A DNA stretch of 64,000 nucleotides from Alphaproteobacteria bacterium (lineage in GTDB: Bacteria; Pseudomonadota; Alphaproteobacteria; SP197). Positions within the stretch are counted from its first letter, which is position 1. The number at the start of each line of letters is the position of its first letter. Location: assembly GCA_965228895.1 (NCBI GenBank), contig OZ245842.1, forward strand, positions 832,001-896,000, read 5' to 3'. Below, in pieces: positions 49,752-64,000 of the stretch. The notes below the pieces were generated by a model that was given only the letters and a program-made list of their open reading frames with translations, made no database searches and was not told where the DNA came from. A program made the translations under genes and the position numbers.

Positions 49752-50495
49752 ATGAAGCTAAGAGGGGTCCTTGCATTTCTGTGCATCACACTGGCTGCGT
49801 GCGAGGCGGTACCAAACACGGGTTTAAATGGTGCGAGTTGGGCCTCGGTGAGTTCAACAAATGACCCGGGCGTGTATCGGGACTTCGACACCCAAGCGGT
49901 TTTTGATGGGACGGACCAGGTTGGGGAGGCAATGTTCCGAAGCACTCATCCCGGCGCGAGCGATGGAGGGCTAGGGACAACAGACTGGGTCTATGTTCGT
50001 ACGGTAGAGCTTGATTACGCTGCAATTGTTTCCGGCGCGTACAACCTATCGCCAGAAATAGTCAGGTTCTTTCGGGAGTGCGCACCGGCCCTCGATCCGA
50101 CCAATCCTGAGGATCAGTTCCGTTCAGGCCGTCTGGGCGACACGCCTGATGCACGTCTGGTTTTGACGCGTGTCACTTGGCGCACCGAAATCGGACCAGG
50201 GCCGCAGATCTACTCGACGGCTCGTGTGGCCGATGCAAATCTACAGGTATTCGGTGCCAGCGCTAAGCTGCAGCGTCCCCTGTCTCTCAGCGTGCTGCTC
50301 TCAGTTGAGCCGGGTCGGAGCTTTGAGCCAGCATCTCCGATTATTAATCGGACTGTCAGCAACATCCGCACCGGAGACGTCACAGCAAACTGCACGGACC
50401 AAACCCTCGAGACGGCGCACATCGCAATTGGAGAGTCCGGCTGGTTCCCCGGAGGGGATGTTTACAACATCGTTGTGGAGATCATCGAGGAATGA
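49752..50495 (+). CDS. Hypothetical lipoprotein
   Basis: SD GGAGG; MKLR + hydrophobic core + lipobox LAAC. Confidence 0.75.
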   Translation: MKLRGVLAFLCITLAACEAVPNTGLNGASWASVSSTNDPGVYRDFDTQAVFDGTDQVGEAMFRSTHPGASDGGLGTTDWVYVRTVELDYAAIVSGAYNLSPEIVRFFRECAPALDPTNPEDQFRSGRLGDTPDARLVLTRVTWRTEIGPGPQIYSTARVADANLQVFGASAKLQRPLSLSVLLSVEPGRSFEPASPIINRTVSNIRTGDVTANCTDQTLETAHIAIGESGWFPGGDVYNIVVEIIEE

Positions 50496-50821
50496 GTTTT
50501 GCGACGTCGTCACAGCAGCCCGGTTCCCCCTTGAACTTCCGTGTCCGCGTTAGCAAGGCAAAGGGCGACAAGGCCCTTTGGGGTGGCGCAGGCATAGATA
50601 ATCCTCTAACTGGCACAGATGCCTACATTTTGGTTCGCGTGGATGAGCGGGGAGAGCCGATCGAGCTTTTCAAGCAGCCTACGCGCGGTTCACCACCGAA
50701 GCTAGTAGCAAAACTTGAGCCTGGCGAGACTTTCCTCGTGGCAATCGACAAGGCCGTTGCCATCACGGCACGCTGCGCGAAAGACACTTTCGTGGACTGT
50801 GCTTTCGTAGCTAAGGGTTGA
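50492..50821 (+). CDS. Small beta-rich hypothetical protein
   Basis: ATGA overlap with the lipoprotein gene; 109 aa. Confidence 0.65.
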   Translation: MSFATSSQQPGSPLNFRVRVSKAKGDKALWGGAGIDNPLTGTDAYILVRVDERGEPIELFKQPTRGSPPKLVAKLEPGETFLVAIDKAVAITARCAKDTFVDCAFVAKG

Positions 50822-50830
50822 GAGGAACAA

Positions 50831-52216
50831 ATGACGATTCAGGCAAAGGTCCGCACTCTGCGTGCTCGCGCAAGCCAATCCGCGGATCTGAGTTTCAACA
50901 TGGCGGGCGTTATCGCAGCGCGGAACTATGATTTCGCGACAGACAATGGAACGGCTCATCTTGGTAAGGTGGCGCTCCGGTTCGACATTAAGACAAACTT
51001 GTACGATCACTTGGGGGAAACAGAACCTGGGTCCGGACCGATCATCGCAAATTCGCGACTGAAGTATGGTGCAGGGTCGATTGCGCAACTCTTCATATCG
51101 CCGAAAGGGTCTAATCCAGCACCGTACCTGTTTGAACTGCGGAACGAAACGCTTGGAGCTGCCCTCGATCAGGCAATCTCCAAACGAGAGAACGCCTATT
51201 TGGAGAGGTACAGACATGTAGCGCAAATTGCGGCTAGGCTGCGGCACAGCTACCCTGAGATCACGAAACATTTGACTAACCTCGTCGCTAACACGCAGGC
51301 GCGGTTTGACGCACTCGACGCAGAGTACGCAACTGATGGGATTGCAGTACGAAAGGCGACAGTCAGCGAGCAGTCTGTGAGTGCTGACTATGCGGTTCAA
51401 ACAGAAAACGTGACCAAGTCAACGACATTGGCGACCTGGAACTCAACCATGCCGAATGGCAATCCTTCCGGCGACGCAATGATTACTGAAATCAAGGATC
51501 CGGATGGCAAGGTGCTTCAGAAGCACGAGACGCCAAATGCCGGCAGTCTCCCTCGGATTCTGAACGCTGCAGGGCAATGGGAGTTAGTAAGTACTCCGGA
51601 CTTCACCAGCCAGAAGGTCGAGGCAAAAACCACCTCAGATGGGAAGCAAATCACCGAGACATTCGATGCGCGATACGCCCACCCGCGATTGGAAAATGAA
51701 ATTGAGTATCGCCAGGCCAGTCAAGCGCTCCATAGTGAACTGATCAAACAGGAACTCGCCACTCATAGATTGCCGCATCTAGAGCGGATCATGGAGAATG
51801 AGCTGAAGGCGATAGATCTCGAGATTCGGTCCCTTCAGTTGAACTTCGCTCACACCTACCTAACTGCTCCGTTCGACGGAGTGGTAACAGCCCTTTACAA
51901 AGATATCGGAGAGAGCGTGGAGGCCGGTGAACCAATACTTCGTCTCGAGAACGACACTGTGCTTCTAATTGTTGGCCAGGTGCAGGCCGTAGGCTCTGTT
52001 CGACTTGGTGCCCAAGTGACAATTACATTCGACCTGGATGACACTGGCGCAATGAAGCAATTGCCTGGCCACATCGTTTCGGTTCGCGGCCATGAGGCCG
52101 ACAACGACGAGTGGGACCTGATAATACAAGCTGATAACCCTGCTGACGGTGGGGGACGGCTGGTGCCCCTCAACTATCAGTTCGATCCTGATTCCTCGGT
52201 TGTGGTCATCATGTAA
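50831..52216 (+). CDS. Atypical HlyD/membrane-fusion (periplasmic adaptor)-like protein
   Basis: ADLSFNMAGVI and LTAPFDGVVTALYKDIGESVEAGEPILRL lipoyl-like halves, coiled coil, C-terminal beta-barrel-like region; SD GAGGA. Confidence 0.7.
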   Translation: MTIQAKVRTLRARASQSADLSFNMAGVIAARNYDFATDNGTAHLGKVALRFDIKTNLYDHLGETEPGSGPIIANSRLKYGAGSIAQLFISPKGSNPAPYLFELRNETLGAALDQAISKRENAYLERYRHVAQIAARLRHSYPEITKHLTNLVANTQARFDALDAEYATDGIAVRKATVSEQSVSADYAVQTENVTKSTTLATWNSTMPNGNPSGDAMITEIKDPDGKVLQKHETPNAGSLPRILNAAGQWELVSTPDFTSQKVEAKTTSDGKQITETFDARYAHPRLENEIEYRQASQALHSELIKQELATHRLPHLERIMENELKAIDLEIRSLQLNFAHTYLTAPFDGVVTALYKDIGESVEAGEPILRLENDTVLLIVGQVQAVGSVRLGAQVTITFDLDDTGAMKQLPGHIVSVRGHEADNDEWDLIIQADNPADGGGRLVPLNYQFDPDSSVVVIM

Positions 52217-52899
52217 TGTCAGTACCGCGTCCAAACCCCCCACGTTTGTGGGGGAGTAACCCCACTGAATTGGAGGAATCGCGCGGTGTCACAAACTTGA
52301 GGTTAACTTGGGACCGCGTCGCAGGGGCTTCAGGTTACGACTTGAGAATTGATGGCGGGACTATAATGCCGGTGCAGCCTGACGTAACACCAGGCGGGTT
52401 CGGTCCCAATACCCTTCACAGCTTTGAAGTGCGAGCTAAAGTCGGAACCGACGTCTCTCTGTGGTCAGGGGCATTCGAAACGGTGACACGCCCGCCAACT
52501 CCAACTCTGCCCAAACAAGATGCGGCAAGTGTGAGTATCTGGGGTGTGGCCCTTTTGTGGAATGAAAGCGCGAGCCTTCCCGGTGCATACATTGATGTTT
52601 GGCGAAGGTTGGGAGGCGTCGAAAACAGGCTCAACGAAGGCCAGCCATTACCACTTCTTGGCGGTTGGCTCGATGAAACAGACCCCTCGATGTCCGATAA
52701 GGCATTCTGGTTGCAGTTGGTCGTGCCGGCTTTATCGGTTCCGGGTGACCGGCTACCTGGCGATAACGTCTCATTTTTTGGCCCTGAGATCCAATTGAGT
52801 GGGCCGGTTGTTCGCCGCGCGGTAATCCCTCCGCGCAGTGTTCGGTCTTCCGATCAATTATGGCATCGACAGTACGGTCGTGCAGGACGGCTGTTGTGA
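52216..52899 (+). CDS. Fibronectin type III-like domain protein
   Basis: LTWDRVAGASGYDL...PNT.HSFEVRA...SLWS; TAATG overlap. Confidence 0.65.
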   Translation: MSVPRPNPPRLWGSNPTELEESRGVTNLRLTWDRVAGASGYDLRIDGGTIMPVQPDVTPGGFGPNTLHSFEVRAKVGTDVSLWSGAFETVTRPPTPTLPKQDAASVSIWGVALLWNESASLPGAYIDVWRRLGGVENRLNEGQPLPLLGGWLDETDPSMSDKAFWLQLVVPALSVPGDRLPGDNVSFFGPEIQLSGPVVRRAVIPPRSVRSSDQLWHRQYGRAGRLL

Positions 52900-54365
52900 T
52901 CGCCGGCTTGCCAGAGCGAGCTCTTTGGGAAAGAGCCGGAGAGCAAAGTTCACGAGAGCGCACTGTACGAGAAAGGCGAGCCGTCGAAATCTGGGGTCGC
53001 CGACATTCGAAGCCGAGTGTATTTGATGATCGTCCCGAACGTGCCCGGCCTGGGACAGAAGGATGGCGAATGGTCTCTACCTCAGCCGCTCAGGCAAATA
53101 CGACCACGGGCTCAACAACGTTCAGGTCGCCGCCCTATAGCGAGGCATGGGAACCGCGAGGCGAGAAAGCACGAATGTCGGGCGGAGTGTTTCCGTCTCC
53201 GCCCTGGGCTGGCGGAGGTGTCGAGCCCCCCTCGTCTCGCGAAGTTCCCGAAGTGAGGCGCGAAGGGCCAGTATTCGGTCGAAGGGGAAACATATTCGGA
53301 AACTACTTTGGTTGGGGTGAGGCCCTGGACGATCCGCTAAGTCCGGCAAGCCCGGTTGACTTGGTCGCTTGGTATCATGACCAAGAGTATGGAGCAATCC
53401 AACGGAAGTACGGAGCAAGCTCTGATCCTGTTGAGGCATACTTTGAGCCTTTCACACGTTTTGATCGTCCGGAGTTCATGTATGACTTGGCGATGGCAGA
53501 CCTTCGATTCAATGAGAACTCTTGGAGTTTTATTGGTCAAGCCATGGATCAAGGCTTCTATCGCGGCGCCGCTGAATTGTTGGCTGCCGACATAGTAATG
53601 TCTTCTCTCGCTTGGGTGTTTCACACTGCGCTCGCGGGCGTGAGACTTGCAGTCTACGGGACGCAGGTTGTCTTTGGTGGACTTTACAAAGTGTTCGCTG
53701 GAGAGATGTCGATCGGTAATTACTTAGTGAGCATAATGGAGGGAGGGGCAAAAATACTTGCCGCAGTAGGATACTTCATCGCCGGCACGGTTCGCGGAGT
53801 ATGGAACTTCGGTGCGGCGACGTTGCGTGGGATAGCGCGAGACCCTGTGCGGGGCTTATCGGGTGTTGCGCTCGGTGCGGCCGCCGGTAGCGTGTTCGGT
53901 CCAATAGGAACTGTTGTCGGAGGTATCATCGGGGGAGCGATTGGTGGCGGTGGCGGATGCTTTATCACGACTGCTGTGTGTGAGGCACATGGTTTGCCCG
54001 ATGAGCACGAGTTGCTTGTAGAGTTACGTCGATTCCGTGACGGCTACATGTCCCGAGATCCCTCGGCGCGGAGTCTGGTCGAGGCCTATTACCGTGTATC
54101 ACCGCTGATCGTTGCTGAATTCGCTCTAAGGCCAGACAAAGACGACATCTACCGCGAGCTGTTTGCACGTTATCTGGTTCCTGCGTTCAATATGGTCCGT
54201 CGAGGTCGTTATAGAGCAGCGCTAAGTGTGTATCGCGCAATGTTGCTTCGCGCAGCTTCGAAGGCAGGGCTGCGTCATGAGTTAGACCGTTTCCCGGCCA
54301 TTGATCGCTATCGATCCTTGCCGGATTGGGATCCTTCGACGACGGGAATTCTGACAGCTACGTAG
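52896..54365 (+). CDS. Phospholipase A2-motif protein with hydrophobic/glycine-zipper region and CFI-box C-terminal domain
   Basis: YFGWG, DLVAWYHDQEY, ADLRF; GxxxG zipper; GGGGCFITTA...LRRFRD...YYRVSP; GTGA overlap. Confidence 0.7.
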   Translation: MIAGLPERALWERAGEQSSRERTVRERRAVEIWGRRHSKPSVFDDRPERARPGTEGWRMVSTSAAQANTTTGSTTFRSPPYSEAWEPRGEKARMSGGVFPSPPWAGGGVEPPSSREVPEVRREGPVFGRRGNIFGNYFGWGEALDDPLSPASPVDLVAWYHDQEYGAIQRKYGASSDPVEAYFEPFTRFDRPEFMYDLAMADLRFNENSWSFIGQAMDQGFYRGAAELLAADIVMSSLAWVFHTALAGVRLAVYGTQVVFGGLYKVFAGEMSIGNYLVSIMEGGAKILAAVGYFIAGTVRGVWNFGAATLRGIARDPVRGLSGVALGAAAGSVFGPIGTVVGGIIGGAIGGGGGCFITTAVCEAHGLPDEHELLVELRRFRDGYMSRDPSARSLVEAYYRVSPLIVAEFALRPDKDDIYRELFARYLVPAFNMVRRGRYRAALSVYRAMLLRAASKAGLRHELDRFPAIDRYRSLPDWDPSTTGILTAT

Positions 54366-54892: not shown

Positions 54893-54921
54893 TTGACAAG
54901 ATTAGCAGCGCTAAGTACAAC
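54893..54921 (+). promoter_or_regulatory. Sigma70-like promoter with a palindrome in the spacer
   Basis: TTGACA-17 bp-TACAAC; TTAGC-agc-GCTAA at 54902-54914. Confidence 0.5.
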
Positions 54922-54928
54922 AAGCACT

Positions 54929-55288
54929 ATGACAGAATCTACTGAAAAACTCGGTACGTTTCTGGCGTCGACGCGCAACAAGCTCGGACTCACATTGAGG
55001 ACTGTTGAAAAGCAGGTTGGGATTTCCAACGCGTATCTGAGCCAGTTGGAGCACGGAAAAATCAAGATGCCCGCTCCGCAGAACCTGCACAAGCTAGCCC
55101 AATTGTATCGGTTGCCCTACGAGCTCTTGATGGAGCTGGCCGGGTATCCGGTACCAAGGCCGAAAGCGGGGAGCGCAAGACAAAAGCTGGATTCATTATC
55201 GGCGAGAATTGGATCGGTGAGCAAAGAGGAGGAAGAGGCGCTTGTAGAATATCTGCAGTTCATCCGGTCAAGAAAGCGGAGGCGATAG
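54929..55288 (+). CDS. XRE-family HTH transcriptional regulator
   Basis: R.KLGLTLRTVEKQVGISNAYLSQLEHGK...P. Confidence 0.9.
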   Translation: MTESTEKLGTFLASTRNKLGLTLRTVEKQVGISNAYLSQLEHGKIKMPAPQNLHKLAQLYRLPYELLMELAGYPVPRPKAGSARQKLDSLSARIGSVSKEEEEALVEYLQFIRSRKRRR

Positions 55289-56230
55289 ATGCGATGGTCG
55301 TACTCCGCAAGCCGTTCATTTCGTCAATGCCAGCGTCAGTGGTACTTCAAGAACATCGTGGCCAGCGCGAAGGCGAAAGACCCGCTACGAAAACGCGCCT
55401 ATCTTCTGAGCAAGCTGCAAAGCGTGAGTGCTTGGCGGGGCCGGATTGTGGATGACGTCATATCAAACGTCATTGTTCCCTGCATTAACCGAAACACCTG
55501 CATAACGCTAAAACAGGCCAAGGAGCGTGCCCGGAATCTGTTTGAAAGGCAACTCGCCTTTGGGCGGCGCCATCCAATTGACGACCTGAACCTTCGCGTG
55601 TCTGAGCAGGGGGAAGATTTCGCCGCCTTCCACGCCATGGAGTACAATCGCGGACTTTCACAAACAGAGATAGACCGGGCATGGTCCGAGATTGAAACCG
55701 CGTTGGAAAACCTCTTTAGGCTGCATGATCTCAAGCGCATCATGAAGTCTTCCGACTACATTGTAACGCAGCGAGCACTCCAGTTCCCGCTCATGGACGG
55801 AATAACCGTTCTTGCCTATCCTGATGCCATAGCTTTTCAATCTGGCTCGTCGCCAATCCTCATTGATTGGAAGGTTCACGTCTTTGGGAAGAATGACGCT
55901 TGGCTGCAGCTAGCGATCTATGCGATAGCGCTGCAACGGTGCAAGCCCCATGCGGATTTTCCGGCGCTGCCGGAAGCCCCTCTTCAGGACATAAAACTCT
56001 ACGAGGTACAACTCCTAACAAACGTTGTGCGCGAACACGCTCTTGATGCCGATCAGTTTATTGAGGCTGAGGAGTACATGATCGCGTCTGCATACGAGAT
56101 GACGTGTCTTACGGAAGGAGAGAAGTACGCCAGGCTGGACATGGAAGACTTTACGCCAGCCTTGCATGCGCAAACATGCCAGCGCTGTGCGTTTCGGAAA
56201 TTGTGCTGGAAGGATGAGCATGTCCATTGA
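55289..56230 (+). CDS. Cas4/AddB-like PD-(D/E)xK nuclease
   Basis: WSYS......C, YPDAI, IDWK, QLAIY, C-terminal CQRCAFRKLC (1+3 Cys). Confidence 0.85.
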   Translation: MRWSYSASRSFRQCQRQWYFKNIVASAKAKDPLRKRAYLLSKLQSVSAWRGRIVDDVISNVIVPCINRNTCITLKQAKERARNLFERQLAFGRRHPIDDLNLRVSEQGEDFAAFHAMEYNRGLSQTEIDRAWSEIETALENLFRLHDLKRIMKSSDYIVTQRALQFPLMDGITVLAYPDAIAFQSGSSPILIDWKVHVFGKNDAWLQLAIYAIALQRCKPHADFPALPEAPLQDIKLYEVQLLTNVVREHALDADQFIEAEEYMIASAYEMTCLTEGEKYARLDMEDFTPALHAQTCQRCAFRKLCWKDEHVH

Positions 56231-58592
56231 ATCGAACTGTTTTCGCATTAACGGGCTGGGCAATCTTCGTGCCGAGTACCGGCTGTTTCAAATCGCGGGA
56301 TTGCAGCGGGAAACGCCCGAATACTATGCGAATGTCCAGCGCATTGTTCGTCAATTGAGCTACCAGATGAAAGCGCCGGTGACGACTTACGACCTAGATC
56401 GGCAAACGTCTCTGGTTGTGCCCAAAGGTTTCGGCGATCCGCCGGATCATGTGACGCTGGTAGGTGCAGTGGCTGCCCTGAAGGACACCGGTGAGGCGAT
56501 TGAACTAAACTTTAAAAGGCCCTGCGCTGAGCTGGATCCCGTCAGGCTGCGGTTTCTGCAGTTTGTGTTTCAAGACCCGCTTTGGAACAACCCGCAGCTA
56601 TGGCAACCGAGCGCTGGCAAGCCGTTCTTTTTCAAGAAGCCGGCAAAGCAACTCGGAAAGCTCGATTTGTATGAAGGCTTCACCATAAGGGTGACGCCGC
56701 ATCCGGAAGGCGGCTTTGGGATCACGCTCGATTTGCGCAGGAAGTTGGTATCAAGATCGGCGCTTCCGGCAAACATGTCGCGGGAACAGGCCAACAAATT
56801 CAAGGGAAGGTCCTGCCTCTATAAAATGGGTCATGTCTGGTACGAAGTGAGCATTGCCGGGCTTGCGGACCTGAATATTGGGGAGCCGTCGATTCCGTTA
56901 AGCGGAAAGGCGGTGAGCTTGGTTGACTATCTTCACAGCAAGTCGCCAAAACCCGTTCCGTCCTCGATCGCCAACCTGTCTCCTGACGGCGCTGCAATCT
57001 ACTACAGGACCACCGGTCCGGATCAGAAGGCTGCACCGGCGCAGCTCTGTTATCTGGTGGAAGACACGCACGACCGGGAAGGAGCGCGGCATCAACCGGA
57101 AACCGTAATCGGGCCGTTTGATCGTCATCGGCAAATCGGCAGCATTGTTCGGCGCTTTCTCTCAAGTGTTTATGTTGGCGGCGCGAATTTGTCGGTTTCG
57201 GAGACTCCCGCGCGCATACGAACCAAACCGTTCGAAGTGCCAAGTTTGCTGTTGGGCAACAACACCGTGCTCTCGCTCGATAAGTCTGATCGCGGGATCG
57301 TGGCCGCGATAAAGGATTATGCACGAAGCCGACTGAATCTGCTGGATGATGAAGCCGCCGGGTTCTACGAGCGGAGCCTTCTGGACCGGCAGTACATCAT
57401 CTTGCCAAAAAGCATCGCGAACAGCAGCGGACAGCAGTTCCTCACTGAGCTCATGGCGCGCGTGGACGCGCTTTATCCCGTCGGAGGGGATTACCAACCC
57501 GAGTTGATTGTCTATGACGATCTCAGCCAAAGTAGGGACTTTGTAGGTCAGTCGCGAGCGATAAAGGAGGCCATTGAAGCCTCCGGGGTAAAGCCCGGAT
57601 ATGCGCTTATCATGGTGCACCGTTACGACCGCCGCGCCAGATCGGCAGACCAATTGGCCGCCTGGGTTGTCAAGGAGTTTGCACGGCAGTTTGAAGTTAA
57701 GGCATCCGTGGTTCACACCGACGTTATCAGGAAGTCCTACACGGGCGTGACCCGCGATGGTGAAACCAAATACGTCGTCAAAGCAGGTCAGCAGAAGCGG
57801 TTGTCAGGTTATCTGCGCAATGTTGCTCTCAACAAAGTGCTCCTTGCGAATGGGAAATGGCCGTTCGTGTTGAACTCATCTCTTCACGCGGATGTGGTGA
57901 TAGGGATTGATGTAAAGAACAGCACCGCTGCTTTCACGCTCATCGCGAATGGCGGAAGGATCATCCGGTTTTCTACAAGCCCGTCTAAGCAAAAAGAACA
58001 ATTGCTGAAAAATCAGGTTGCAAAGTTTGTAGGCGAACTCATTCGCAAGGAATCTTCGTATTTCGACAAGCCGCCTAAAGAGATTGTCATACATCGGGAC
58101 GGACGAGCTTGGAGATCGGAGATCGCCGGGCTGCACGAATCCTGCAGGAGCCTTGCTAGAGATGGATATCTGGATGCGGGTTGGCGGCTCACGGTGCTCG
58201 AGATTGCGAAAACCGCTCCGGCTCCGTTGCGGCTTTTCAATGTCAAGCCATCAAACAGAGGCGCCGGACTCTATGTTGAGAATCCGCTGGTGGGCAGCTG
58301 GGCAGAGATGTCCGAAGATGAAGGATTTGTATGCACGACGGGCAAGCCTTTCAGAATTCCTGGTACGGCAAACCCTTTGCACGTGCGGCGTGTCGCCGGA
58401 ACGATGCCGATGGAAAAGTGCCTGTCGGACGTGTTTTCCCTGAGCTGTTTGACATGGACACGCCCTGAAGGGGCCATACGCCTTCCAATCTCAATAAAAC
58501 TCTGTGACCGGAGCTTGTTTGACGAGGCCGCCGAATATGACGAGGACGCCATTAAGTTTGACAATGACAATTTGGCCGGGGCGATGAAATGA
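56220..58592 (+). CDS. ago: Long prokaryotic Argonaute (about 790 aa) with apparent DEDD catalytic tetrad
   Basis: PIWI motifs IGIDV, KEQL, IHRDGR, LEIAK, NPLVG, GTANPL, RLPISIKLCD; length fits N-L1-PAZ-L2-MID-PIWI. Confidence 0.88.
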   Translation: MSIESNCFRINGLGNLRAEYRLFQIAGLQRETPEYYANVQRIVRQLSYQMKAPVTTYDLDRQTSLVVPKGFGDPPDHVTLVGAVAALKDTGEAIELNFKRPCAELDPVRLRFLQFVFQDPLWNNPQLWQPSAGKPFFFKKPAKQLGKLDLYEGFTIRVTPHPEGGFGITLDLRRKLVSRSALPANMSREQANKFKGRSCLYKMGHVWYEVSIAGLADLNIGEPSIPLSGKAVSLVDYLHSKSPKPVPSSIANLSPDGAAIYYRTTGPDQKAAPAQLCYLVEDTHDREGARHQPETVIGPFDRHRQIGSIVRRFLSSVYVGGANLSVSETPARIRTKPFEVPSLLLGNNTVLSLDKSDRGIVAAIKDYARSRLNLLDDEAAGFYERSLLDRQYIILPKSIANSSGQQFLTELMARVDALYPVGGDYQPELIVYDDLSQSRDFVGQSRAIKEAIEASGVKPGYALIMVHRYDRRARSADQLAAWVVKEFARQFEVKASVVHTDVIRKSYTGVTRDGETKYVVKAGQQKRLSGYLRNVALNKVLLANGKWPFVLNSSLHADVVIGIDVKNSTAAFTLIANGGRIIRFSTSPSKQKEQLLKNQVAKFVGELIRKESSYFDKPPKEIVIHRDGRAWRSEIAGLHESCRSLARDGYLDAGWRLTVLEIAKTAPAPLRLFNVKPSNRGAGLYVENPLVGSWAEMSEDEGFVCTTGKPFRIPGTANPLHVRRVAGTMPMEKCLSDVFSLSCLTWTRPEGAIRLPISIKLCDRSLFDEAAEYDEDAIKFDNDNLAGAMK

Positions 58593-58957
58593 GCGATTTG
58601 AGCTTGTTGAGCGGGGTTTATGCGAATGTCGAGGAGTACGCGACCCTCGTTGATCGCGTTATTGAGCTCTTGAGGACAGCAGGCTCTGATCCGCGTAATC
58701 AGGATCAGAGCAAGCTCGCTCAGCTTCTCATCGACGCGGGCGACCAAGGGCTTACGTCGCAATCATATGAAGCATTGATGCTGGATAGCCTGCTGCGCTC
58801 AAGCACAGGCGAACCAGTGCTCAATCTTAAGCTTCTCGGCGAGCGTCTCCAAAGCCGCGAGGTTGATGCGATCTATCAAAAACAGCTTGAGATGCTCGCA
58901 TCGGAGTTGGAAGCGGAACGAGCAGAGGTGGCAAGCCGCCTCCGGGGACGTAAGTGA
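58589..58957 (+). CDS. Small Leu-rich helical hypothetical protein
   Basis: ATGA overlap with ago; 122 aa. Confidence 0.75.
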   Translation: MSDLSLLSGVYANVEEYATLVDRVIELLRTAGSDPRNQDQSKLAQLLIDAGDQGLTSQSYEALMLDSLLRSSTGEPVLNLKLLGERLQSREVDAIYQKQLEMLASELEAERAEVASRLRGRK

Positions 58958-60105
58958 TTGAAACCTACCTCATTGGCTCGATCAACCAGTCTTTGGAGAG
59001 AATACGCCAGCTCCGTCAAATCATTCAGGGACAATACCCGCGCGAATATGACGGGTTGCGGCAGGTCTGCTTAACCCGGCTTGACGCGGCGCAGGCCGAT
59101 CTCAAACGGCTGGCGCAGGAACCGGTGGTGGACAAGGGATTGCAAACGCCGCGCCGGATAAGAGAGTTCAAACGCGTGGTTGAACACCTTAACGCAGTTG
59201 AAGGCGTCGGCGTGTTTGCGCTCAAGAGGACGAGCGCCGAAGATCATGTTCTGAATTTCTTGATTACCGAACTGTGCCAAGAAATTCGGTACCCGCTTGT
59301 TCCCCCGGTGATTAGTCAGATGTCGCAAGATTATTTTCACATCTATCCGGAGTTCAATTTATTGTGCGTTCCCCTCATCGAAGGGCGCTTTCTTTTGCAC
59401 TTGCCGGATATCTATCACGAACTTTGCCATCCCTTTCATCGTGCGCAGCATACGGACTTGCCGACGCTCGAAGCCTATCACGCCTGTTTCAAGAACAGCC
59501 TGTTTGCGATGGTGGAGCACTTCCAGATTGAAGCCGTCGCGGCAGACCGTCTGCGCAAGCCCGAAGGTAAGCGTTTTCAGATACAACTCTGGAAAACTTG
59601 CTGGGTGAAATACTGGATGGAGGAATTGTACTGCGATCTGTTCGGGGTGCTGACTGCGGGGCCGGCCTTTGTCTGGTCGCACTATCATCTCTGCATCAAG
59701 CGGGGCGGCAATCCGTTTGAAACGCCTCTGACGTTCGCGGCAACACACCCTGCGGACGATGCGCGCATGAAAGCTATGCTGAAGATGCTGGCCCAGATGG
59801 ATGGGTATGACCCTGAAGCAGGGTCGATCAGGGATGCCTGGAGCGATTTTCTTCAGACAATGAGCTTCAGGCAAGAGCCGGAGTACCGGCAATGCTATTC
59901 CGATGATCTGCTTTCCGTCATTGTGAAGGAAGCCAAGAGCGGCGTGGAGAAGGTCGGCATTGAGACGGCCGGAAAAGACTCTCCGACCATGATCGTAAGC
60001 CTGCTCAATGATGCGTGGCGGGAGTTCTGGAAAAATCCGCAACGCTATCAGTCCTGGGAAGGTCAGAAGTTGGCCTGCCTGCAAAAGAGCATCGCCAAAA
60101 CCTGA
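58954..60105 (+). CDS. Putative HExxH zinc metallopeptidase (M48/Lit-like motif order)
   Basis: HELCH, EELYCDLFG, THPADDAR; GTGA overlap. Confidence 0.7.
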   Translation: MIETYLIGSINQSLERIRQLRQIIQGQYPREYDGLRQVCLTRLDAAQADLKRLAQEPVVDKGLQTPRRIREFKRVVEHLNAVEGVGVFALKRTSAEDHVLNFLITELCQEIRYPLVPPVISQMSQDYFHIYPEFNLLCVPLIEGRFLLHLPDIYHELCHPFHRAQHTDLPTLEAYHACFKNSLFAMVEHFQIEAVAADRLRKPEGKRFQIQLWKTCWVKYWMEELYCDLFGVLTAGPAFVWSHYHLCIKRGGNPFETPLTFAATHPADDARMKAMLKMLAQMDGYDPEAGSIRDAWSDFLQTMSFRQEPEYRQCYSDDLLSVIVKEAKSGVEKVGIETAGKDSPTMIVSLLNDAWREFWKNPQRYQSWEGQKLACLQKSIAKT

Positions 60106-60266: not shown

Positions 60267-60595
60267 TAGAGCGCTTTCCGATCAGTCGCGGTCATATCCT
60301 TGCACTCCTAGAGCGTGAAAGTGTCGATGGTTCGGGCGATGGCGTCCGAGAGATCATCGACGGTGCGTGCGGCGAGCTTCTATAGGAAGGCCCTGAACTT
60401 AGCGAAGGCAAGTTCGGTAGGATTGAAGTTGGGGCTGTAGGACGGCAGAGAGCGCAACTCGGCGCCGGCCGCCTCGATGGCCTGCCGGACGGCGGCCGGC
60501 TTGTGCGCCGGCAGGTTGTCCATGACGACGATGTGCCCCGGTGACAGTGTCGGCACCAGCACTTGCTCGACCTAGGCGAGGAACGCCTGGCCCCG
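60267..60595 (-). mobile_element. IS630-family transposase remnant
   Basis: [25 protein letters not shown] motifs with in-frame stops; ends in ...GGAAAGCGCTCTA. Confidence 0.85.
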
Positions 60596-60807: not shown

Positions 60808-61731
60808 TCACATCCGCTTGACGCTGCCGTCACCTGCGACGCAGATTACCGGCTCGACGAGTTCATACTCAGTCGCGTTTCGCTCAAAAGTCCCGATTCT
60901 TTCCTGTGAAAGTTCAAAGCTCATCAAATGCATGTCGGTCGTTTGATGATTGCCTTCGGCGGAGAACCCTGCATCAACGGCGATACCGCCACGTTCGGTG
61001 AGCAGATAGCGGGCATGGAAGTCCGCGCCGCCATTCTTCTGTCGCCAGCAGAAAATCGAGACACTAAGGCCGGCGGGAACGACACCGGGGAAAAGATTGT
61101 TGGCTTCCCGCTCCAGGTCTTCGTTCGTCGTCTTGTTGTCGTGATAGCGATAATGGATTTCGCAGATAGCATCCGGATTTTCGCCGCCGATGATGTTCAG
61201 ACACTCCCGCAACGTGTTCTTGTAGCGCTGGTTGAAGGGATCAAAGAACGGATCAACAAACAGGATGTGTGAGGCAGACCGGAGCATTTCCTTCATCGCT
61301 GCGGCGAGCGAAGGCGCGTCGCGTGTGATCGCACAATCATGTGGCACAGCCATGAGCGGGTGAAGCTCATCGAGGTCTTCGGCCAGTAAAACGGTATCGC
61401 TGCCGTCCGGATTCTGAGCCGCGATGATGGCCCGAAACGGATCGCGTTGTTGCTCAGTCAATGCGTTGTACAGCCAGTCGCCGGCGTCACGGTCATACGG
61501 ACGGCGCCTGCGCACCACCTTGTTCTTCCTTGCCAGATTAAGCGCTTCTTCGATGCGCTTTTTCTGGACCGGCGGCAAGCCGGCGGTCGCATCGTAAACT
61601 TCGCGGAACCATTTCTTCGGGAACTCAGATATCAGCCGGCCTTTATCGAAACCGAATTTCTCGATGACATACCGAAAGGTAGCCCAACTTGATCCAATCG
61701 CCTGCGGCTCTACCGCGTACTCGTAAAGCAT
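60808..61731 (-). CDS. Hypothetical protein coupled to the ATPase (C-terminal DP../H.R PLD-like motifs)
   Basis: TGATG overlap with the ATPase; FVDPFF and FHARYLLT..GG...D.GF. Confidence 0.7.
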   Translation of the reverse strand: MLYEYAVEPQAIGSSWATFRYVIEKFGFDKGRLISEFPKKWFREVYDATAGLPPVQKKRIEEALNLARKNKVVRRRRPYDRDAGDWLYNALTEQQRDPFRAIIAAQNPDGSDTVLLAEDLDELHPLMAVPHDCAITRDAPSLAAAMKEMLRSASHILFVDPFFDPFNQRYKNTLRECLNIIGGENPDAICEIHYRYHDNKTTNEDLEREANNLFPGVVPAGLSVSIFCWRQKNGGADFHARYLLTERGGIAVDAGFSAEGNHQTTDMHLMSFELSQERIGTFERNATEYELVEPVICVAGDGSVKRM

Positions 61732-63530
61732 CAGAAAAGCTCCCCGGCACGCTCCTCGAAGAAGCCATGAGGCCACTGGTCGCGGAATTCTCCGTGTTCA
61801 TCGATGCCAAGGCCGCGAAATTGCACGCCGTCAGGACCGCCCTCGACATAGATCACCGAGAGGTCGTCGGCGGTCAGGCCGTGTACGCCCGGCGGCAGCT
61901 CTTTCTCTGTCGTCTCCCTGATGCGCCGCAAGAGCCGCAGCATGATGTGCTCGCTGTGTGTCTCGACCAGCAGGCTGCGCTCAGGACCGACGGCGGGCTG
62001 CATTAAGGTAGTGGCTTCGATAAAAAGATCGCCGAGCCCGACCTGGATAGCGGGATGAATATGAAGCTCGGGCTGTTCGATAGCGATAAGGCCGTCGGGG
62101 TCCATCAGGCAAGCGACCACGACCGGGATCATTTGGGAAATGCCGACGCCGACATCGCCCGGCGCTACCACCAGACCTTTTTCAAGATCGAGCAGACCGA
62201 AATCCGTTACGGTATTCAATGATCCATAGAGCTCTTGAAGCTCGCCGAGATCATCATCGTCAATGCCCCGTTGGAATAGCTGATGAAAACGGCTCGTGTT
62301 AGGGATTTGCTTAAAGACAGTATTCTGCAGTTGATAGCCGGTGTGCAGTTTCATCTCTGATGATAGCCATTCATTCACCTGGTCCAAGAGCGCATCAGAT
62401 ATCTGCGTGTGAAGAACATCCCATGCCGCCAGGCCCTGCGCCCACCGTGATTCATCAGGAGACAGACGTGGCCTGTATCCTCGTGTCGGGATTTCCCGCA
62501 GCGGCCCGATATAGGTGAGCGCCTTGAGGTAGTCCCGCACGATGCGAACCGGCCCAAGCACGATTTCATCGAGCAGGGTGCTCAGACCAGCCCGGCGAGA
62601 GCTTTCTAATTCATATTCATCAGCGGCCCGCCACTCATCATTCTCGGACACCCGCAACACCGCAGCGCCGCGCGCATAGCGCATGCGTATTAGATTCTTG
62701 TCGGGTTCAACCAGATCGAGAACGAGCGGACGGTCGAGATCAGGTAAAGCCCCAAAATCGGTATCAACCTTGGCGCGGAAGCGAACACGCTCGTTGACCT
62801 GCCTGTCCGCAACGATCTGCCGGGATAGCTCATAGAGCTCATTGCCCAGCGGGGTTTTGAACGGATCGCCGTGTTCGTCGTCCTCTTCGGTCTCAACCAT
62901 GACCGGAGGGCTTTCCAGCACTTCAAAGGTATCGTCATCGGGATCGATAAGCTCTTGCAACAGGCGATGTTCCCAGTTGATCCCAGTCAGCTCAGTGAGT
63001 CCTTCCTGCGGCGGTGATCGGAGCTCGGCAAGCCTCTCGCCGTCCAATTCGATCGCTACGTTCGATACGTAAGGACCCTGGATGAGATCGCTCCAGGACA
63101 CCTCGATGCCAACACCAACGTCCTGCACGACGGCGTATTCTTTGAGCTCAGTATTTTCGCCGGCCAGATAGCGGACACGCAGATTGTTGAACTGCGTATC
63201 GAGCAAGTTGCCGCCCGAGTTCAGCGGCAGCCGTTCGTTGCCTTGGTCGTCCGTCAGGTCGATCCGAACCATGATGCGGATTACCCTGCCCAGCTCATGA
63301 CTATGAACGAGGCTCGCAAAGCCGCCTAAATCGATGAGTCCGCCGGCGATCGTTTGATCGGGGTCAGGATTTTGACGTTCAAGAATTTCGCGTAAGTAAT
63401 GCAGGGCCTGAAGGACTGTGCTCTTGCCGGCGCTGTTCGGGCCGAAAAGCAGAGTGATCGGTTTGAGGTCGATCGACTGTGTTTCGCCGATGCCTTTGAA
63501 GTTTTCGATTTCGATCTGGCGTAAGCGCAT
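61731..63530 (-). CDS. ABC-type (AAA_15/AAA_21-like) ATPase with DUF3696 C-terminus
   Basis: IENFKG, Walker A GPNSAGKS, GVGISQ, IEQPELHIHP, ETHSEH, WPHGFF. Confidence 0.88.
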   Translation of the reverse strand: MRLRQIEIENFKGIGETQSIDLKPITLLFGPNSAGKSTVLQALHYLREILERQNPDPDQTIAGGLIDLGGFASLVHSHELGRVIRIMVRIDLTDDQGNERLPLNSGGNLLDTQFNNLRVRYLAGENTELKEYAVVQDVGVGIEVSWSDLIQGPYVSNVAIELDGERLAELRSPPQEGLTELTGINWEHRLLQELIDPDDDTFEVLESPPVMVETEEDDEHGDPFKTPLGNELYELSRQIVADRQVNERVRFRAKVDTDFGALPDLDRPLVLDLVEPDKNLIRMRYARGAAVLRVSENDEWRAADEYELESSRRAGLSTLLDEIVLGPVRIVRDYLKALTYIGPLREIPTRGYRPRLSPDESRWAQGLAAWDVLHTQISDALLDQVNEWLSSEMKLHTGYQLQNTVFKQIPNTSRFHQLFQRGIDDDDLGELQELYGSLNTVTDFGLLDLEKGLVVAPGDVGVGISQMIPVVVACLMDPDGLIAIEQPELHIHPAIQVGLGDLFIEATTLMQPAVGPERSLLVETHSEHIMLRLLRRIRETTEKELPPGVHGLTADDLSVIYVEGGPDGVQFRGLGIDEHGEFRDQWPHGFFEERAGELF

Positions 63531-63539
63531 CGCGGCACC

Positions 63540-64000
63540 TCAAAGTTCACCGCGGAAGGCGCGAACAGATAGGCTTCCGAAAAGCTTTTCGCTTTCAGCG
63601 TAGCTGTCACGTAAACGCGCTGTCATTGCATTGATTTGTATGAATAATTCTCCAAATTTCTCTTGCTCCTCCTCACTGGGTCGCAGAAATTTAATCTCCT
63701 GGAATTTGCCTTTGCTAACCATTCCTTTCATCGAATTGGTTGAGTTTAACTGGATTAGATTTTTACTGACTAGAAATTGGGTATACAGAAAATACGGATT
63801 GACCGTGTCGTTGGGTATGACAGCATTTATTTGCTGATTGAATGCAACCTCACGGTCTGAAATAGCTGCGTTCCCAATAACGCTGGGGCTTCCCGCAATG
63901 CAAGTCACTAACGTTGATCCCGCTGGAGCTAGCCGTCCAAGCAGCTTCCCTGAATCACTTAAGTATTCTTCGGCTTTAGTCAGAAAATGGTCGGGCGTGT
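63540..64000 (-). CDS. hsdS: Type I restriction-modification specificity subunit, C-terminal part
   Basis: IGNAAI...AFNQQINA, P..EEQ.KF conserved helix, SL..RAFRGEL end; frame open to the window edge. Confidence 0.88.
   Translation of the reverse strand, partial: TPDHFLTKAEEYLSDSGKLLGRLAPAGSTLVTCIAGSPSVIGNAAISDREVAFNQQINAVIPNDTVNPYFLYTQFLVSKNLIQLNSTNSMKGMVSKGKFQEIKFLRPSEEEQEKFGELFIQINAMTARLRDSYAESEKLFGSLSVRAFRGEL

Follow-up and report, generated by a model that had tools for sequence, protein, structure and literature searches.

The DNA analysed here (the window) is a stretch of 64,000 nucleotides (nt) from an Alphaproteobacteria bacterium of the GTDB lineage SP197 (GenBank assembly GCA_965228895.1, contig OZ245842.1, positions 832,001 to 896,000 of the forward strand). 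Of two DNA sequencing runs, one has contigs that span the entire stretch and the other has just short pieces of low depth. The window carries a cassette of five genes on the same strand (plus), which encode, in this order, an XRE-family helix-turn-helix (HTH) regulator, a Cas4-like nuclease, a long prokaryotic Argonaute (pAgo), a protein of 122 amino acids (aa) and, as the last gene, a peptidase-like protein of an unnamed family. The last gene and its small neighbour are the subject of this report. The open reading frame (ORF) of the peptidase (58954-60105) encodes 383 aa with a mass of 44 kDa and an isoelectric point (pI) of 6.5, and its GTG start overlaps the TGA stop of the 122-aa ORF as GTGA. 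The protein is soluble by hydropathy, with no hydrophobic segment (maximum Kyte-Doolittle value 1.14 for a 19-residue window, at residues 136-154) and a polar N-terminus.

Three motifs define the putative active site. The first, HELCH (nt 59416-59430, H155-H159), is a gluzincin-like HExxH motif with H155 and H159 as predicted zinc ligands and E156 as predicted catalytic base. The predicted third zinc ligand, E224, sits 64 residues past H159 in the ExxxD element of EELYCD (nt 59620-59637, E223-D228) on helix 204-235. The third, THPADDAR (nt 59743-59766, T264-R271), contains a conserved HPxDxxR motif that is a candidate transition-state or substrate-binding element. Given that only 0.03 HExxH motifs are expected by chance from the protein's own composition, and that the motif is invariant among relatives, it is not a chance occurrence. 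In 27 relatives at 26-63% identity the invariant residues include H155, E156, H159, E224, D228, P266, D268 and R271, together with E143, D152, W217, W221, G236, P237, W241 and H243. The core of this set extends to far more distant members: in a set of eight sequences that takes in members, at 22-25% identity, from operons that start with a sigma-70-type gene, H155, E156, H159, E224, C227, D228, H265, P266, D268 and R271 are invariant and H243 is not. HExxH followed by a Glu in ExxxD 64 residues on, and then by HPxDxxR, is a gluzincin pattern as judged from the sequence.

The small acidic helical protein (58589-58957, 122 aa, pI 4.68) is joined to the pAgo gene by an ATGA overlap with its stop, so the last three genes of the cassette overlap in series. 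The pAgo (56166-58592, 808-aa ORF) belongs to the PliAgo group and matches PADLOC pAgo_II with E=0 and 1043.6 bits; its listed start is probably too far upstream, with the ATG at 56220 the likely one. The best PDB sequences for it are 7R8K (E 9.1e-209) and 7R8F (E 1.6e-208), both aligning from query residue 19. These entries are PliAgo, described in PMC9360449 as the founding member of the DNA-guided RNA-cleaving ('D-R') pAgos, with the catalytic tetrad DEDD at D563/E592/D626/D762. The PliAgo tetrad aligns to D582/E611/D645/D781 of the listed pAgo ORF; it is thus retained, and the operon therefore holds a catalytically intact RNA cutter. Ahead of the pAgo lie the Cas4-like PD-(D/E)XK nuclease (55289-56230; Pfam PDDEXK_1, 1.2e-10; PADLOC Aga_Cas4-like_Nuc, 4.5e-124) and the XRE-family HTH regulator as first cassette gene (54893-55288; Pfam HTH_19, 4.4e-11, HTH_31 and HTH_3). 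In PADLOC the regulator matches HTH_VI (5.5e-9) and capH (3.4e-6, over profile positions 5-91 of 103). Its listed TTG start is probably too far upstream and the ATG at 54929 is likely to be used; the orthologue alignment has a conserved internal Met, an AGYPVP linker after the HTH and a conserved C-terminal helix. With a DEDD-bearing pAgo preceded by a Cas4-like nuclease and an HTH regulator, the cassette has the makeup of a PliAgo-type D-R operon and shares pAgo type, nuclease and regulator with the PliAgo operon of PMC9360449. The account of D-R operons in PMC9360449 names a regulator or sigma-70 factor, a nuclease and the pAgo; it leaves the two downstream genes unnamed and the roles of the neighbours open, and treats the cellular role of D-R pAgos as an open question (PMC9360449, Lisitskaya et al. 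2022).

Sequence searches place the peptidase in a large family without a name. A word-seeded search gave 405 homologues, of which the best 120, at 55-67% identity, are all unnamed or 'hypothetical' and have no Pfam domain. A profile search of 1.84 billion representatives, clustered at 50% identity, gave 934 clusters with E<=1e-3, of which 542 also pass E<=1e-10 and 256 pass E<=1e-30; most are about 380 aa long. Pfam (none at E<=1), NCBIfam, PADLOC and PHROGs gave no usable match for the peptidase, and against PDB sequences the best phmmer row had E 2.1 and the profile search returned 0 rows at E<=10. High-scoring Atlas matches (0.97-0.99) are all unnamed clusters; the nearest Atlas clusters with any Pfam family, scoring 0.78-0.79, carry U49 or M48 on 12-25% of members, which serves as a lead only.

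The full-length AlphaFold model, built on a 25-sequence alignment, has a mean predicted local distance difference test (pLDDT) value of 90.4 and a predicted template modelling (pTM) score of 0.87. Its secondary structure as assigned by DSSP starts with three bundle helices (2-24, 30-55 and 61-91), continues with a helix at 95-110, strands at 119-124, 129-131 and 136-140 and the HExxH helix at 152-162, and ends with a long helix at 170-199, the E224 helix at 204-235 and more helices. We distinguish an N-terminal three-helix bundle (58954-59232, residues 1-93), on which the small protein is predicted to dock, from a catalytic domain (59230-60102, residues 93-383) with a backing helix, a three-stranded sheet, the HExxH helix and the Glu-bearing helix. 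In an exhaustive structural search with the full-length model, three-helix bundles that resemble residues 1-93 took up the results (Z up to 12.4), and for this reason the enzyme domain was folded alone. The resulting model of residues 93-383 (27-sequence alignment) has a pLDDT of 94.1 and a pTM of 0.93.

When the domain model was compared exhaustively with 48,161 chains, the top ten were all zinc gluzincin peptidases, with Z of 6.1-7.9. In descending order these are BepA (6sar; Z 7.9, 143 residues aligned at a root-mean-square deviation (rmsd) of 4.3 Å), Zmp1 (3zuk; Z 7.8, 184 residues, 4.4 Å), PepO twice (9kn2; Z 7.5, 181 residues, 4.4 Å; and 4iuw; Z 7.5, 175 residues, 4.0 Å), neprilysin (4cth; Z 7.5, 179 residues, 4.4 Å), ECE-1 (3dwb; Z 7.3, 176 residues, 4.2 Å), ZMPSTE24 (6bh8; Z 7.0, 157 residues, 7.7 Å), a putative Zn-dependent peptidase (3c37; Z 6.9, 152 residues, 6.1 Å), a Haemonchus glycoprotein complex that is presumably M13-like (6row; Z 6.9, 174 residues, 4.0 Å) and Ste24p (4il3; Z 6.1, 166 residues, 7.1 Å). 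We take the matched entries to fall in the MEROPS families M13 and M48. Lower ranks hold M1 aminopeptidases, the minigluzincins abylysin, jannalysin and selecase, BlaR1 (Z 4.8) and thermolysin. Z reaches 5 for only 13 of the chains and 8 for none, so the fold argument rests on the enrichment for one enzyme class, the order of secondary structure and the invariant motifs taken together. When the Foldseek candidates were re-scored, Zmp1, PepO and BepA led again (Z 7.8, 7.5 and 7.5); for the full model Foldseek itself gave only two hints (ECE-1 at rank 2 with E 0.54, neprilysin at rank 21), and against viral predicted structures it gave no match at E<=0.001. We consider it very likely that the protein has a zinc-peptidase fold and is dedicated to the Argonaute cassette. 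An initial annotation, made from the DNA letters, had proposed a soluble HExxH metallopeptidase, and much of it agrees with these results: the ORF and all three motifs lie where it had put them, its N-terminal helical region corresponds to the three-helix bundle at residues 2-91, the zinc-peptidase claim is matched by the predicted gluzincin fold and motif set, and the M48 enzymes whose motif order it had likened to this one are among the structural neighbours of the domain. It had also claimed that there is no signal peptide, with which hydropathy agrees, no dedicated signal-peptide predictor having been run.

The initial annotation had gone further and suggested either a Lit-like suicide protease or a CapP-like enzyme that cuts the XRE repressor when it senses DNA fragments; placement in either family finds no support in the results. 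Lit is, like the peptidase, a defence-linked HExxH enzyme with a downstream ExxxD, but its Glu lies 16 residues past HExxH in the Lit family alignment, compared with 64 in the peptidase. There is no match to Peptidase U49 (Pfam PF10463), BLASTP against E. coli Lit gives no alignment with E below 5, and hhalign against 21 Lit-family sequences reaches a probability of 9% over 41 columns around the HExxH turn only. For ImmA, IrrE and CapP (M78), no families matched in Pfam (Peptidase_M78) or in PADLOC (CapP models), and PprI/IrrE (8sln) appears just at rank 34 of the structural search, with Z 4.2 over 90 aligned residues that cover the shared zincin core only. The closest structures belong to M13 (neprilysin, ECE-1, PepO, Zmp1) and M48 (Ste24/ZMPSTE24 and BepA/HtpX-like enzymes), which have HExxH and a downstream Glu in common with the peptidase, where this Glu (E224) is the predicted ligand. 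The ExxxD about 60 residues past HExxH and the later His...Arg resemble M13, on the residue numbers that we assume for that family. However, M13 enzymes are two-lobed and of about 650-700 aa, and the peptidase, at 383 aa and with one catalytic domain, has no match to Pfam Peptidase_M13 or M13_N at E<=1. M48 membership is likewise not supported, with no Peptidase_M48 match at E<=1; BepA is the top structure but aligns over 143 residues at 4.3 Å. Compared with both families the peptidase is soluble and cytoplasmic, with a catalytic domain of about 290 aa. It has neither the M13 second lobe nor the barrel in the membrane or the TPR part found in M48; it carries a three-helix bundle of its own and has a partner that would act in trans. 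The description that suits it best is that of a new gluzincin family, with a core closest in shape to M13 and M48.

We then compared the loci of relatives, taken from a scan of one genome per species that yielded 51 loci from many phyla and one archaeon; synteny was counted on the 44 loci in which the sequence ahead of the peptidase gene spans at least 4,300 nt. A pAgo (at least 90% coverage) lies directly upstream in 36 of these, pAgo remnants occur in three (L003, L011 and L020) and there is no pAgo in five (L008, L010, L019, L028 and L051, the last being a 73-residue fragment). The XRE gene is present in 39 of the 44 and the nuclease (at least 80% coverage) in 30, and five Dehalococcoidia loci are without the nuclease but have XRE, pAgo, small ORF and peptidase. 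The small ORF was surveyed in 44 loci, excluding seven with broken or cut matches (L016, L020, L021, L031, L032, L049 and L051), and in all 44 its end falls on the peptidase start or a few bases away, mostly with a 1- or 4-base overlap. At one locus (L021, Bradyrhizobium sp. DASA03120) the part of the peptidase gene beside the small ORF encodes residues 1-50, and the part for residues 51-379 begins about 1.4 kb downstream; the gene appears to have been split by an insertion. The operon context proposed in the initial annotation is borne out by the coupling within the cassette and by this synteny.

Plasmids and sister operons separate the pair from any one regulator. All five plasmid records with a relative carry it in nuclease-pAgo-small ORF-peptidase cassettes, and no relative was found in phage records. 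Plasmid pRUNSL03 of Runella slithyformis, which encodes the biochemically studied RslAgo (PMC9360449), carries the same five genes. Plasmids of Emticicia (L053) and Spirosoma (L054) have a sigma-70 gene, a 180-aa protein, nuclease, pAgo, small ORF and peptidase, and we take these operons to be the second (PnyAgo) group described in PMC9360449. Their first two genes encode a sigma-70 region-4 protein and a 180-aa protein that belongs to no family (L053:1775-2913, L054:1880-3027); no similarity to XRE was detected in the 180-aa proteins, which might be anti-sigma partners of the sigma-70 proteins. A cyanobacterial plasmid cassette (L055) has no adjacent regulator, and upstream of it lies an intact IS630 transposase. 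As the pair is kept under XRE, under sigma-70 or with no regulator, it goes with the Argonaute and nuclease core. The peptidase gene was found in none of the 30 relatives searched, which marks it as an accessory gene, and it sits among other defence genes.

Loci from several phyla have lost nuclease and Argonaute (L003, L008, L010, L011, L012, L019 and L028) and still encode the small ORF and an intact peptidase with HExxH; XRE stays in all of them except L008. In L003 and L011 about 17-20 nuclease codons are joined to the last 70-90 pAgo codons, and the breakpoints differ between loci, so the losses look repeated. The ratio of nonsynonymous to synonymous substitution rates (dN/dS) is 0.14 and 0.23 in pAgo-less pairs, similar to the 0.09-0.16 of intact loci, values that cannot date selection to after the deletion.

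The small protein has no family in Pfam, PADLOC, NCBIfam or PHROGs and no usable Atlas match. Its consensus runs from an N-terminal MSDxGLxxGxY to a C-terminal LExLAxxLExER...RGR, and in 20 orthologues M1, S2 and D22 are the sole invariant residues. A Met-Ser start candidate is present in 47 of 48 small ORFs, including those of the sigma-70-type loci, the exception being the archaeal one (L050). A motif apparently shared by its N-terminus and the XRE linker (DSLSARIG and SDLSLLSG) is not conserved in orthologues and was discarded.

Because the small protein and the peptidase are constant, co-translated and kept where the pAgo has been lost, this pair was chosen for complex prediction. Three runs scored 0.90, 0.91 and 0.90, compared with 0.00, 0.18 and 0.00 for the controls. 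Of 157 solved complexes 116 reach that score mark, as do 2 of 215 mismatched pairs; the counts apply only roughly here, our own alignments having been used. Contacts agree by at least 92% between runs, the pLDDT of the small protein is at least 87, and about 100 contacts are made in a large helical interface. The predicted interface has two parts. In the first, helices 15-29, 53-74 and 101-119 of the small protein lie on bundle helix 3 (60-81) and on peptidase helices 179-191 and 208-220, with the invariant R70 of the peptidase set against the invariant D22 of the small protein. In the second, residues 1-12 of the small protein run against the sheet edge (124, 126-133) and E156, H159, 162-164, 223-224, 227 and 264-265, and are thereby predicted to occupy the catalytic cleft. 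M1, S2 and D22, the invariant residues of the small protein, all fall within the predicted interface; as the alignments were input to the predictor, this shows consistency but does not prove the complex independently. The peptidase resembles no PDB sequence, so the result is unlikely to be a remembered complex. We regard binding of the small protein by the peptidase as probable. The initial annotation had recognised neither this predicted tight partnership nor the pAgo as a catalytically intact cutter of the PliAgo type.

Some family members are fused to further domains. In P0126 (609 aa) and P0147 (632 aa), which are rare forms, the C-terminus is a caspase-like CHAT domain that retains its His and Cys motifs; the match is 4.3e-9 for P0126 and 21.1 bits, under the 24-bit cut-off, for P0147. 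A metagenome scan for the context of these fusions found one locus matching the CHAT part only and two unfused relatives. Double-HExxH forms of about 711-799 aa occur in Acidobacteriota (L033:419-2764, L040:506-2854 and L042:445-2826; P0153 and P0343-P0348), in which a C-terminal extension of about 400 aa carries a second motif, HEFLH or HEFIH, followed by DYDAD in most. The extension has no Pfam match, and hhalign against Lit or the family's own domain gives probabilities of 0.1-0.3%. Additions of a CHAT domain or a second HExxH are typical of effector arms.

Downstream of the cassette the window continues into a defence island, made up of a transposase remnant, an AAA-ATPase pair and a specificity-subunit fragment. 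The remnant, 60 aa of a DDE_3 (IS630-like) transposase (60380-60562, minus strand; Pfam 7.6e-14), lies directly past the cassette and marks its 3' border. Two overlapping genes on the minus strand (60808-63530) encode a 322-aa protein that has no family and an AAA_15/AAA_21 ATPase of 599 aa that ends in a DUF3696 tail and whose best PADLOC matches are NsnB (2.1e-39), PDC-M55A (1.5e-38) and HEC-03B (5.4e-32); the two genes are probably a separate two-gene defence system. In the plasmids of Emticicia and Spirosoma, the cassette is followed by a similar pair of a hypothetical protein and an AAA family ATPase. The last gene in the window, for the specificity subunit of a type I restriction-modification system (63540-63998, minus strand; Methylase_S, 4.4e-8), runs past the window end. 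The Runella and Spirosoma cassettes adjoin a defence-type set of a multiubiquitin-domain protein and a ThiF-family adenylyltransferase (L052:8450-10629, L054:1-1488). Upstream of the window cassette, the genes at 49752-54365 (plus strand) encode a 247-aa ORF, a 461-aa HlyD_3 protein (8.1e-11), a 227-aa ORF and a glycine-rich ORF of 501 aa that contains hydrophobic stretches; a Pfam search of the 461-, 227- and 501-aa ORFs gave no match for the last two, and all four genes appear unrelated to the cassette.

If, as predicted, the N-terminus of a co-translated protein fills a metallopeptidase cleft, inhibition is the simplest role for that protein, and a cell that keeps a peptidase plugged usually guards against that peptidase. 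Tissue inhibitors of metalloproteinases (TIMPs) and serralysin inhibitors likewise place an N-terminus in the active-site cleft near the zinc ligands, as is predicted here, but they have no sequence or fold relation to the small protein, which is cytoplasmic, all-helical and co-translated. The plug and the effector-like fusions together lead us to rank first a latent effector that is released on sensing by the Argonaute. The protein would be a soluble gluzincin endopeptidase in which H155, H159 and E224 bind the metal and E156 acts as catalytic base. It is translated together with the 122-aa protein and would be held latent by it, the helices of the small protein docking on the three-helix bundle and its N-terminus (Met-Ser-Asp...) plugging the cleft against E156, H159, E224 and H265. 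The pair forms the fixed 3' module of DNA-guided RNA-cleaving Argonaute operons, of both the PliAgo type and the sigma-70-linked PnyAgo-like type, and would serve as the proteolytic output arm of these Argonautes. On detection of an invader by Argonaute and nuclease the plug might be displaced or trimmed, and the freed peptidase could cut cellular or invader proteins and cause growth arrest or interference. As a whole this scheme is tentative, and we put it at somewhat less than an even chance. A form of it that amounts to Argonaute-coupled protease signalling, in which recognition of invader RNA by the pAgo would release the plug and the gluzincin would then cut XRE, the sigma-70 partner or host proteins, is possible yet rather doubtful.

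Several points weigh against an effector held latent. No sequence method ties the peptidase to any peptidase family. Foldseek, a comparison that the initial annotation had proposed, gives no PDB match at E<=0.001 for either the full or the domain model; it is the exhaustive search that places gluzincins on top, and the structural tool warns that the range of Z<8 may reflect just a common arrangement. The complex is a prediction from our own alignments, in which an inhibitor and a substrate look alike. Gene order is what links the Argonaute to the activity of the peptidase, and a pAgo with an intact slicer site may need no effector. In addition, seven loci have lost nuclease and pAgo wholly or down to remnants, and yet their peptidase ORF is intact, usually with XRE present; this fits a regulator-linked or self-standing module at least as well.

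The XRE gene is the starting point for the reading ranked second, a regulatory protease that on a signal cuts the regulator of the operon (XRE, or the sigma-70 partner protein) and switches the cassette on, with the small protein as sensor or brake. In CapP/CapH, ImmA/ImmR and BlaR1/BlaI a peptidase cleaves its own transcription regulator, and CapP/CapH of cyclic-oligonucleotide-based antiphage signalling systems (CBASS), ImmA/ImmR and IrrE/DdrO likewise place the gene of an M78 zinc peptidase together with that of the XRE-type repressor it cuts, within a single operon of a defence system or mobile element. In the cassette studied here, the XRE has a weak capH profile match and a linker, AGYPVP, that is strongly conserved between HTH and C-terminal helix; it occurs in 39 of 44 loci and remains with small protein and peptidase in six pAgo-less ones. 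The sister operons also begin with a transcription factor (sigma-70), and BlaR1, a repressor-cleaving gluzincin, is among the structural matches at Z 4.8. However, the retention of XRE is weak evidence, because internal deletions spare the promoter-proximal gene by default, and the same pair follows operons with another regulator or none adjacent, which weakens the proposal of the initial annotation that XRE is cut when DNA fragments are sensed. The 180-aa neighbours of sigma-70 resemble XRE in no detectable way. Unlike CapP and ImmA, the peptidase is not of M78, is not encoded beside XRE and has a dedicated small partner predicted in its cleft; it shows no sequence or close fold relation to ImmA, IrrE or CapP. 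A co-translated plug is not obviously needed by such an enzyme either, and we consider regulator cleavage unlikely.

If the small protein is instead a substrate, the two would be a pre-formed pair in which its N-terminus is cut when the Argonaute fires, with the trimmed product or the loss of the protein as signal. The N-terminal 12 residues are predicted to run along the cleft and edge strand 126-133, and the N-terminal motif is common to both operon types (47 of 48 small ORFs). Known RNA-targeting effector-protease systems also use dedicated small substrates, such as Csx30, cut by Craspase, and CalpT, cut by CalpL, in RNA-targeting immunity. In type III-E Craspase it is Csx29 that cuts Csx30, and this system and CalpL/CalpT/CalpS are protease arms of RNA-sensing CRISPR systems. 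By analogy the cassette shares their logic of an RNA-targeting, guide-dependent effector with a protease, a small partner and a transcription factor (sigma factor or repressor). The proteases come from unrelated families, CHAT and Lon-like in those systems and gluzincin in the cassette, although rare members of the present family carry a CHAT domain, and it is gene order that links the peptidase to the Argonaute. The trimming of a few N-terminal residues would be an odd signal, and the large helical interface suggests a stable rather than transient complex; a substrate role seems improbable.

Coupled adjacent genes with predicted mutual binding also fit a protease-inhibitor or toxin-antitoxin-like pair, which could travel with, or stabilise, the Argonaute island and have no part in Argonaute function. 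The order of inhibitor first and enzyme second with overlapping stop and start, and a peptidase ORF that is intact in 7 of 7 pAgo-less loci, speak for such a self-standing module. We nevertheless hold it to be very unlikely, because in the loci compared the pair was not seen apart from Argonaute cassettes or evident deletion derivatives: of the five loci without pAgo, L010, L019 and L028 still have XRE and L008 has the small ORF, the pair and both Argonaute groups have diverged together, and the dN/dS of 0.14 and 0.23 in pAgo-less pairs does not date selection after the loss. Least likely of all is that the protein is not a protease, its HExxH site doing other hydrolysis or just binding metal in a scaffold for Argonaute or nuclease, as could be argued from the missing family-level peptidase match and the modest structural Z, since all residues of the catalytic set, with the general-base Glu and ExxxD among them, stay invariant in deeply diverged members and every top structural neighbour is a peptidase.

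A literature search found, among the matches listed, no paper on a peptidase with pAgos; figures or supplements of PMC9360449 might show both genes unlabelled. The words 'peptidase', 'protease' and 'zinc' are absent from the main text of Ryazansky 2018, as are 'operon', 'protease' and 'accessory' from the MbpAgo 2026 paper. Two of the most constant genes of the D-R pAgo operon appear to be a zinc protease and its partner. PliAgo, RslAgo and the PnyAgo/MbpAgo group have been studied as RNA tools, and if the two genes are what they appear to be, the natural system has a proteolytic step that is invisible to experiments with the Argonaute alone. Argonaute immunity would then have a protease arm, which in the signalling form of our scheme would be an Argonaute counterpart of the Craspase and CalpL CRISPR protease cascades that is built from an unrelated and unnamed peptidase family. 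The peptidases would make up a new gluzincin family of more than 900 sequence clusters, and their small partners possibly a new type of inhibitor, a cytoplasmic one that acts by an N-terminal plug.

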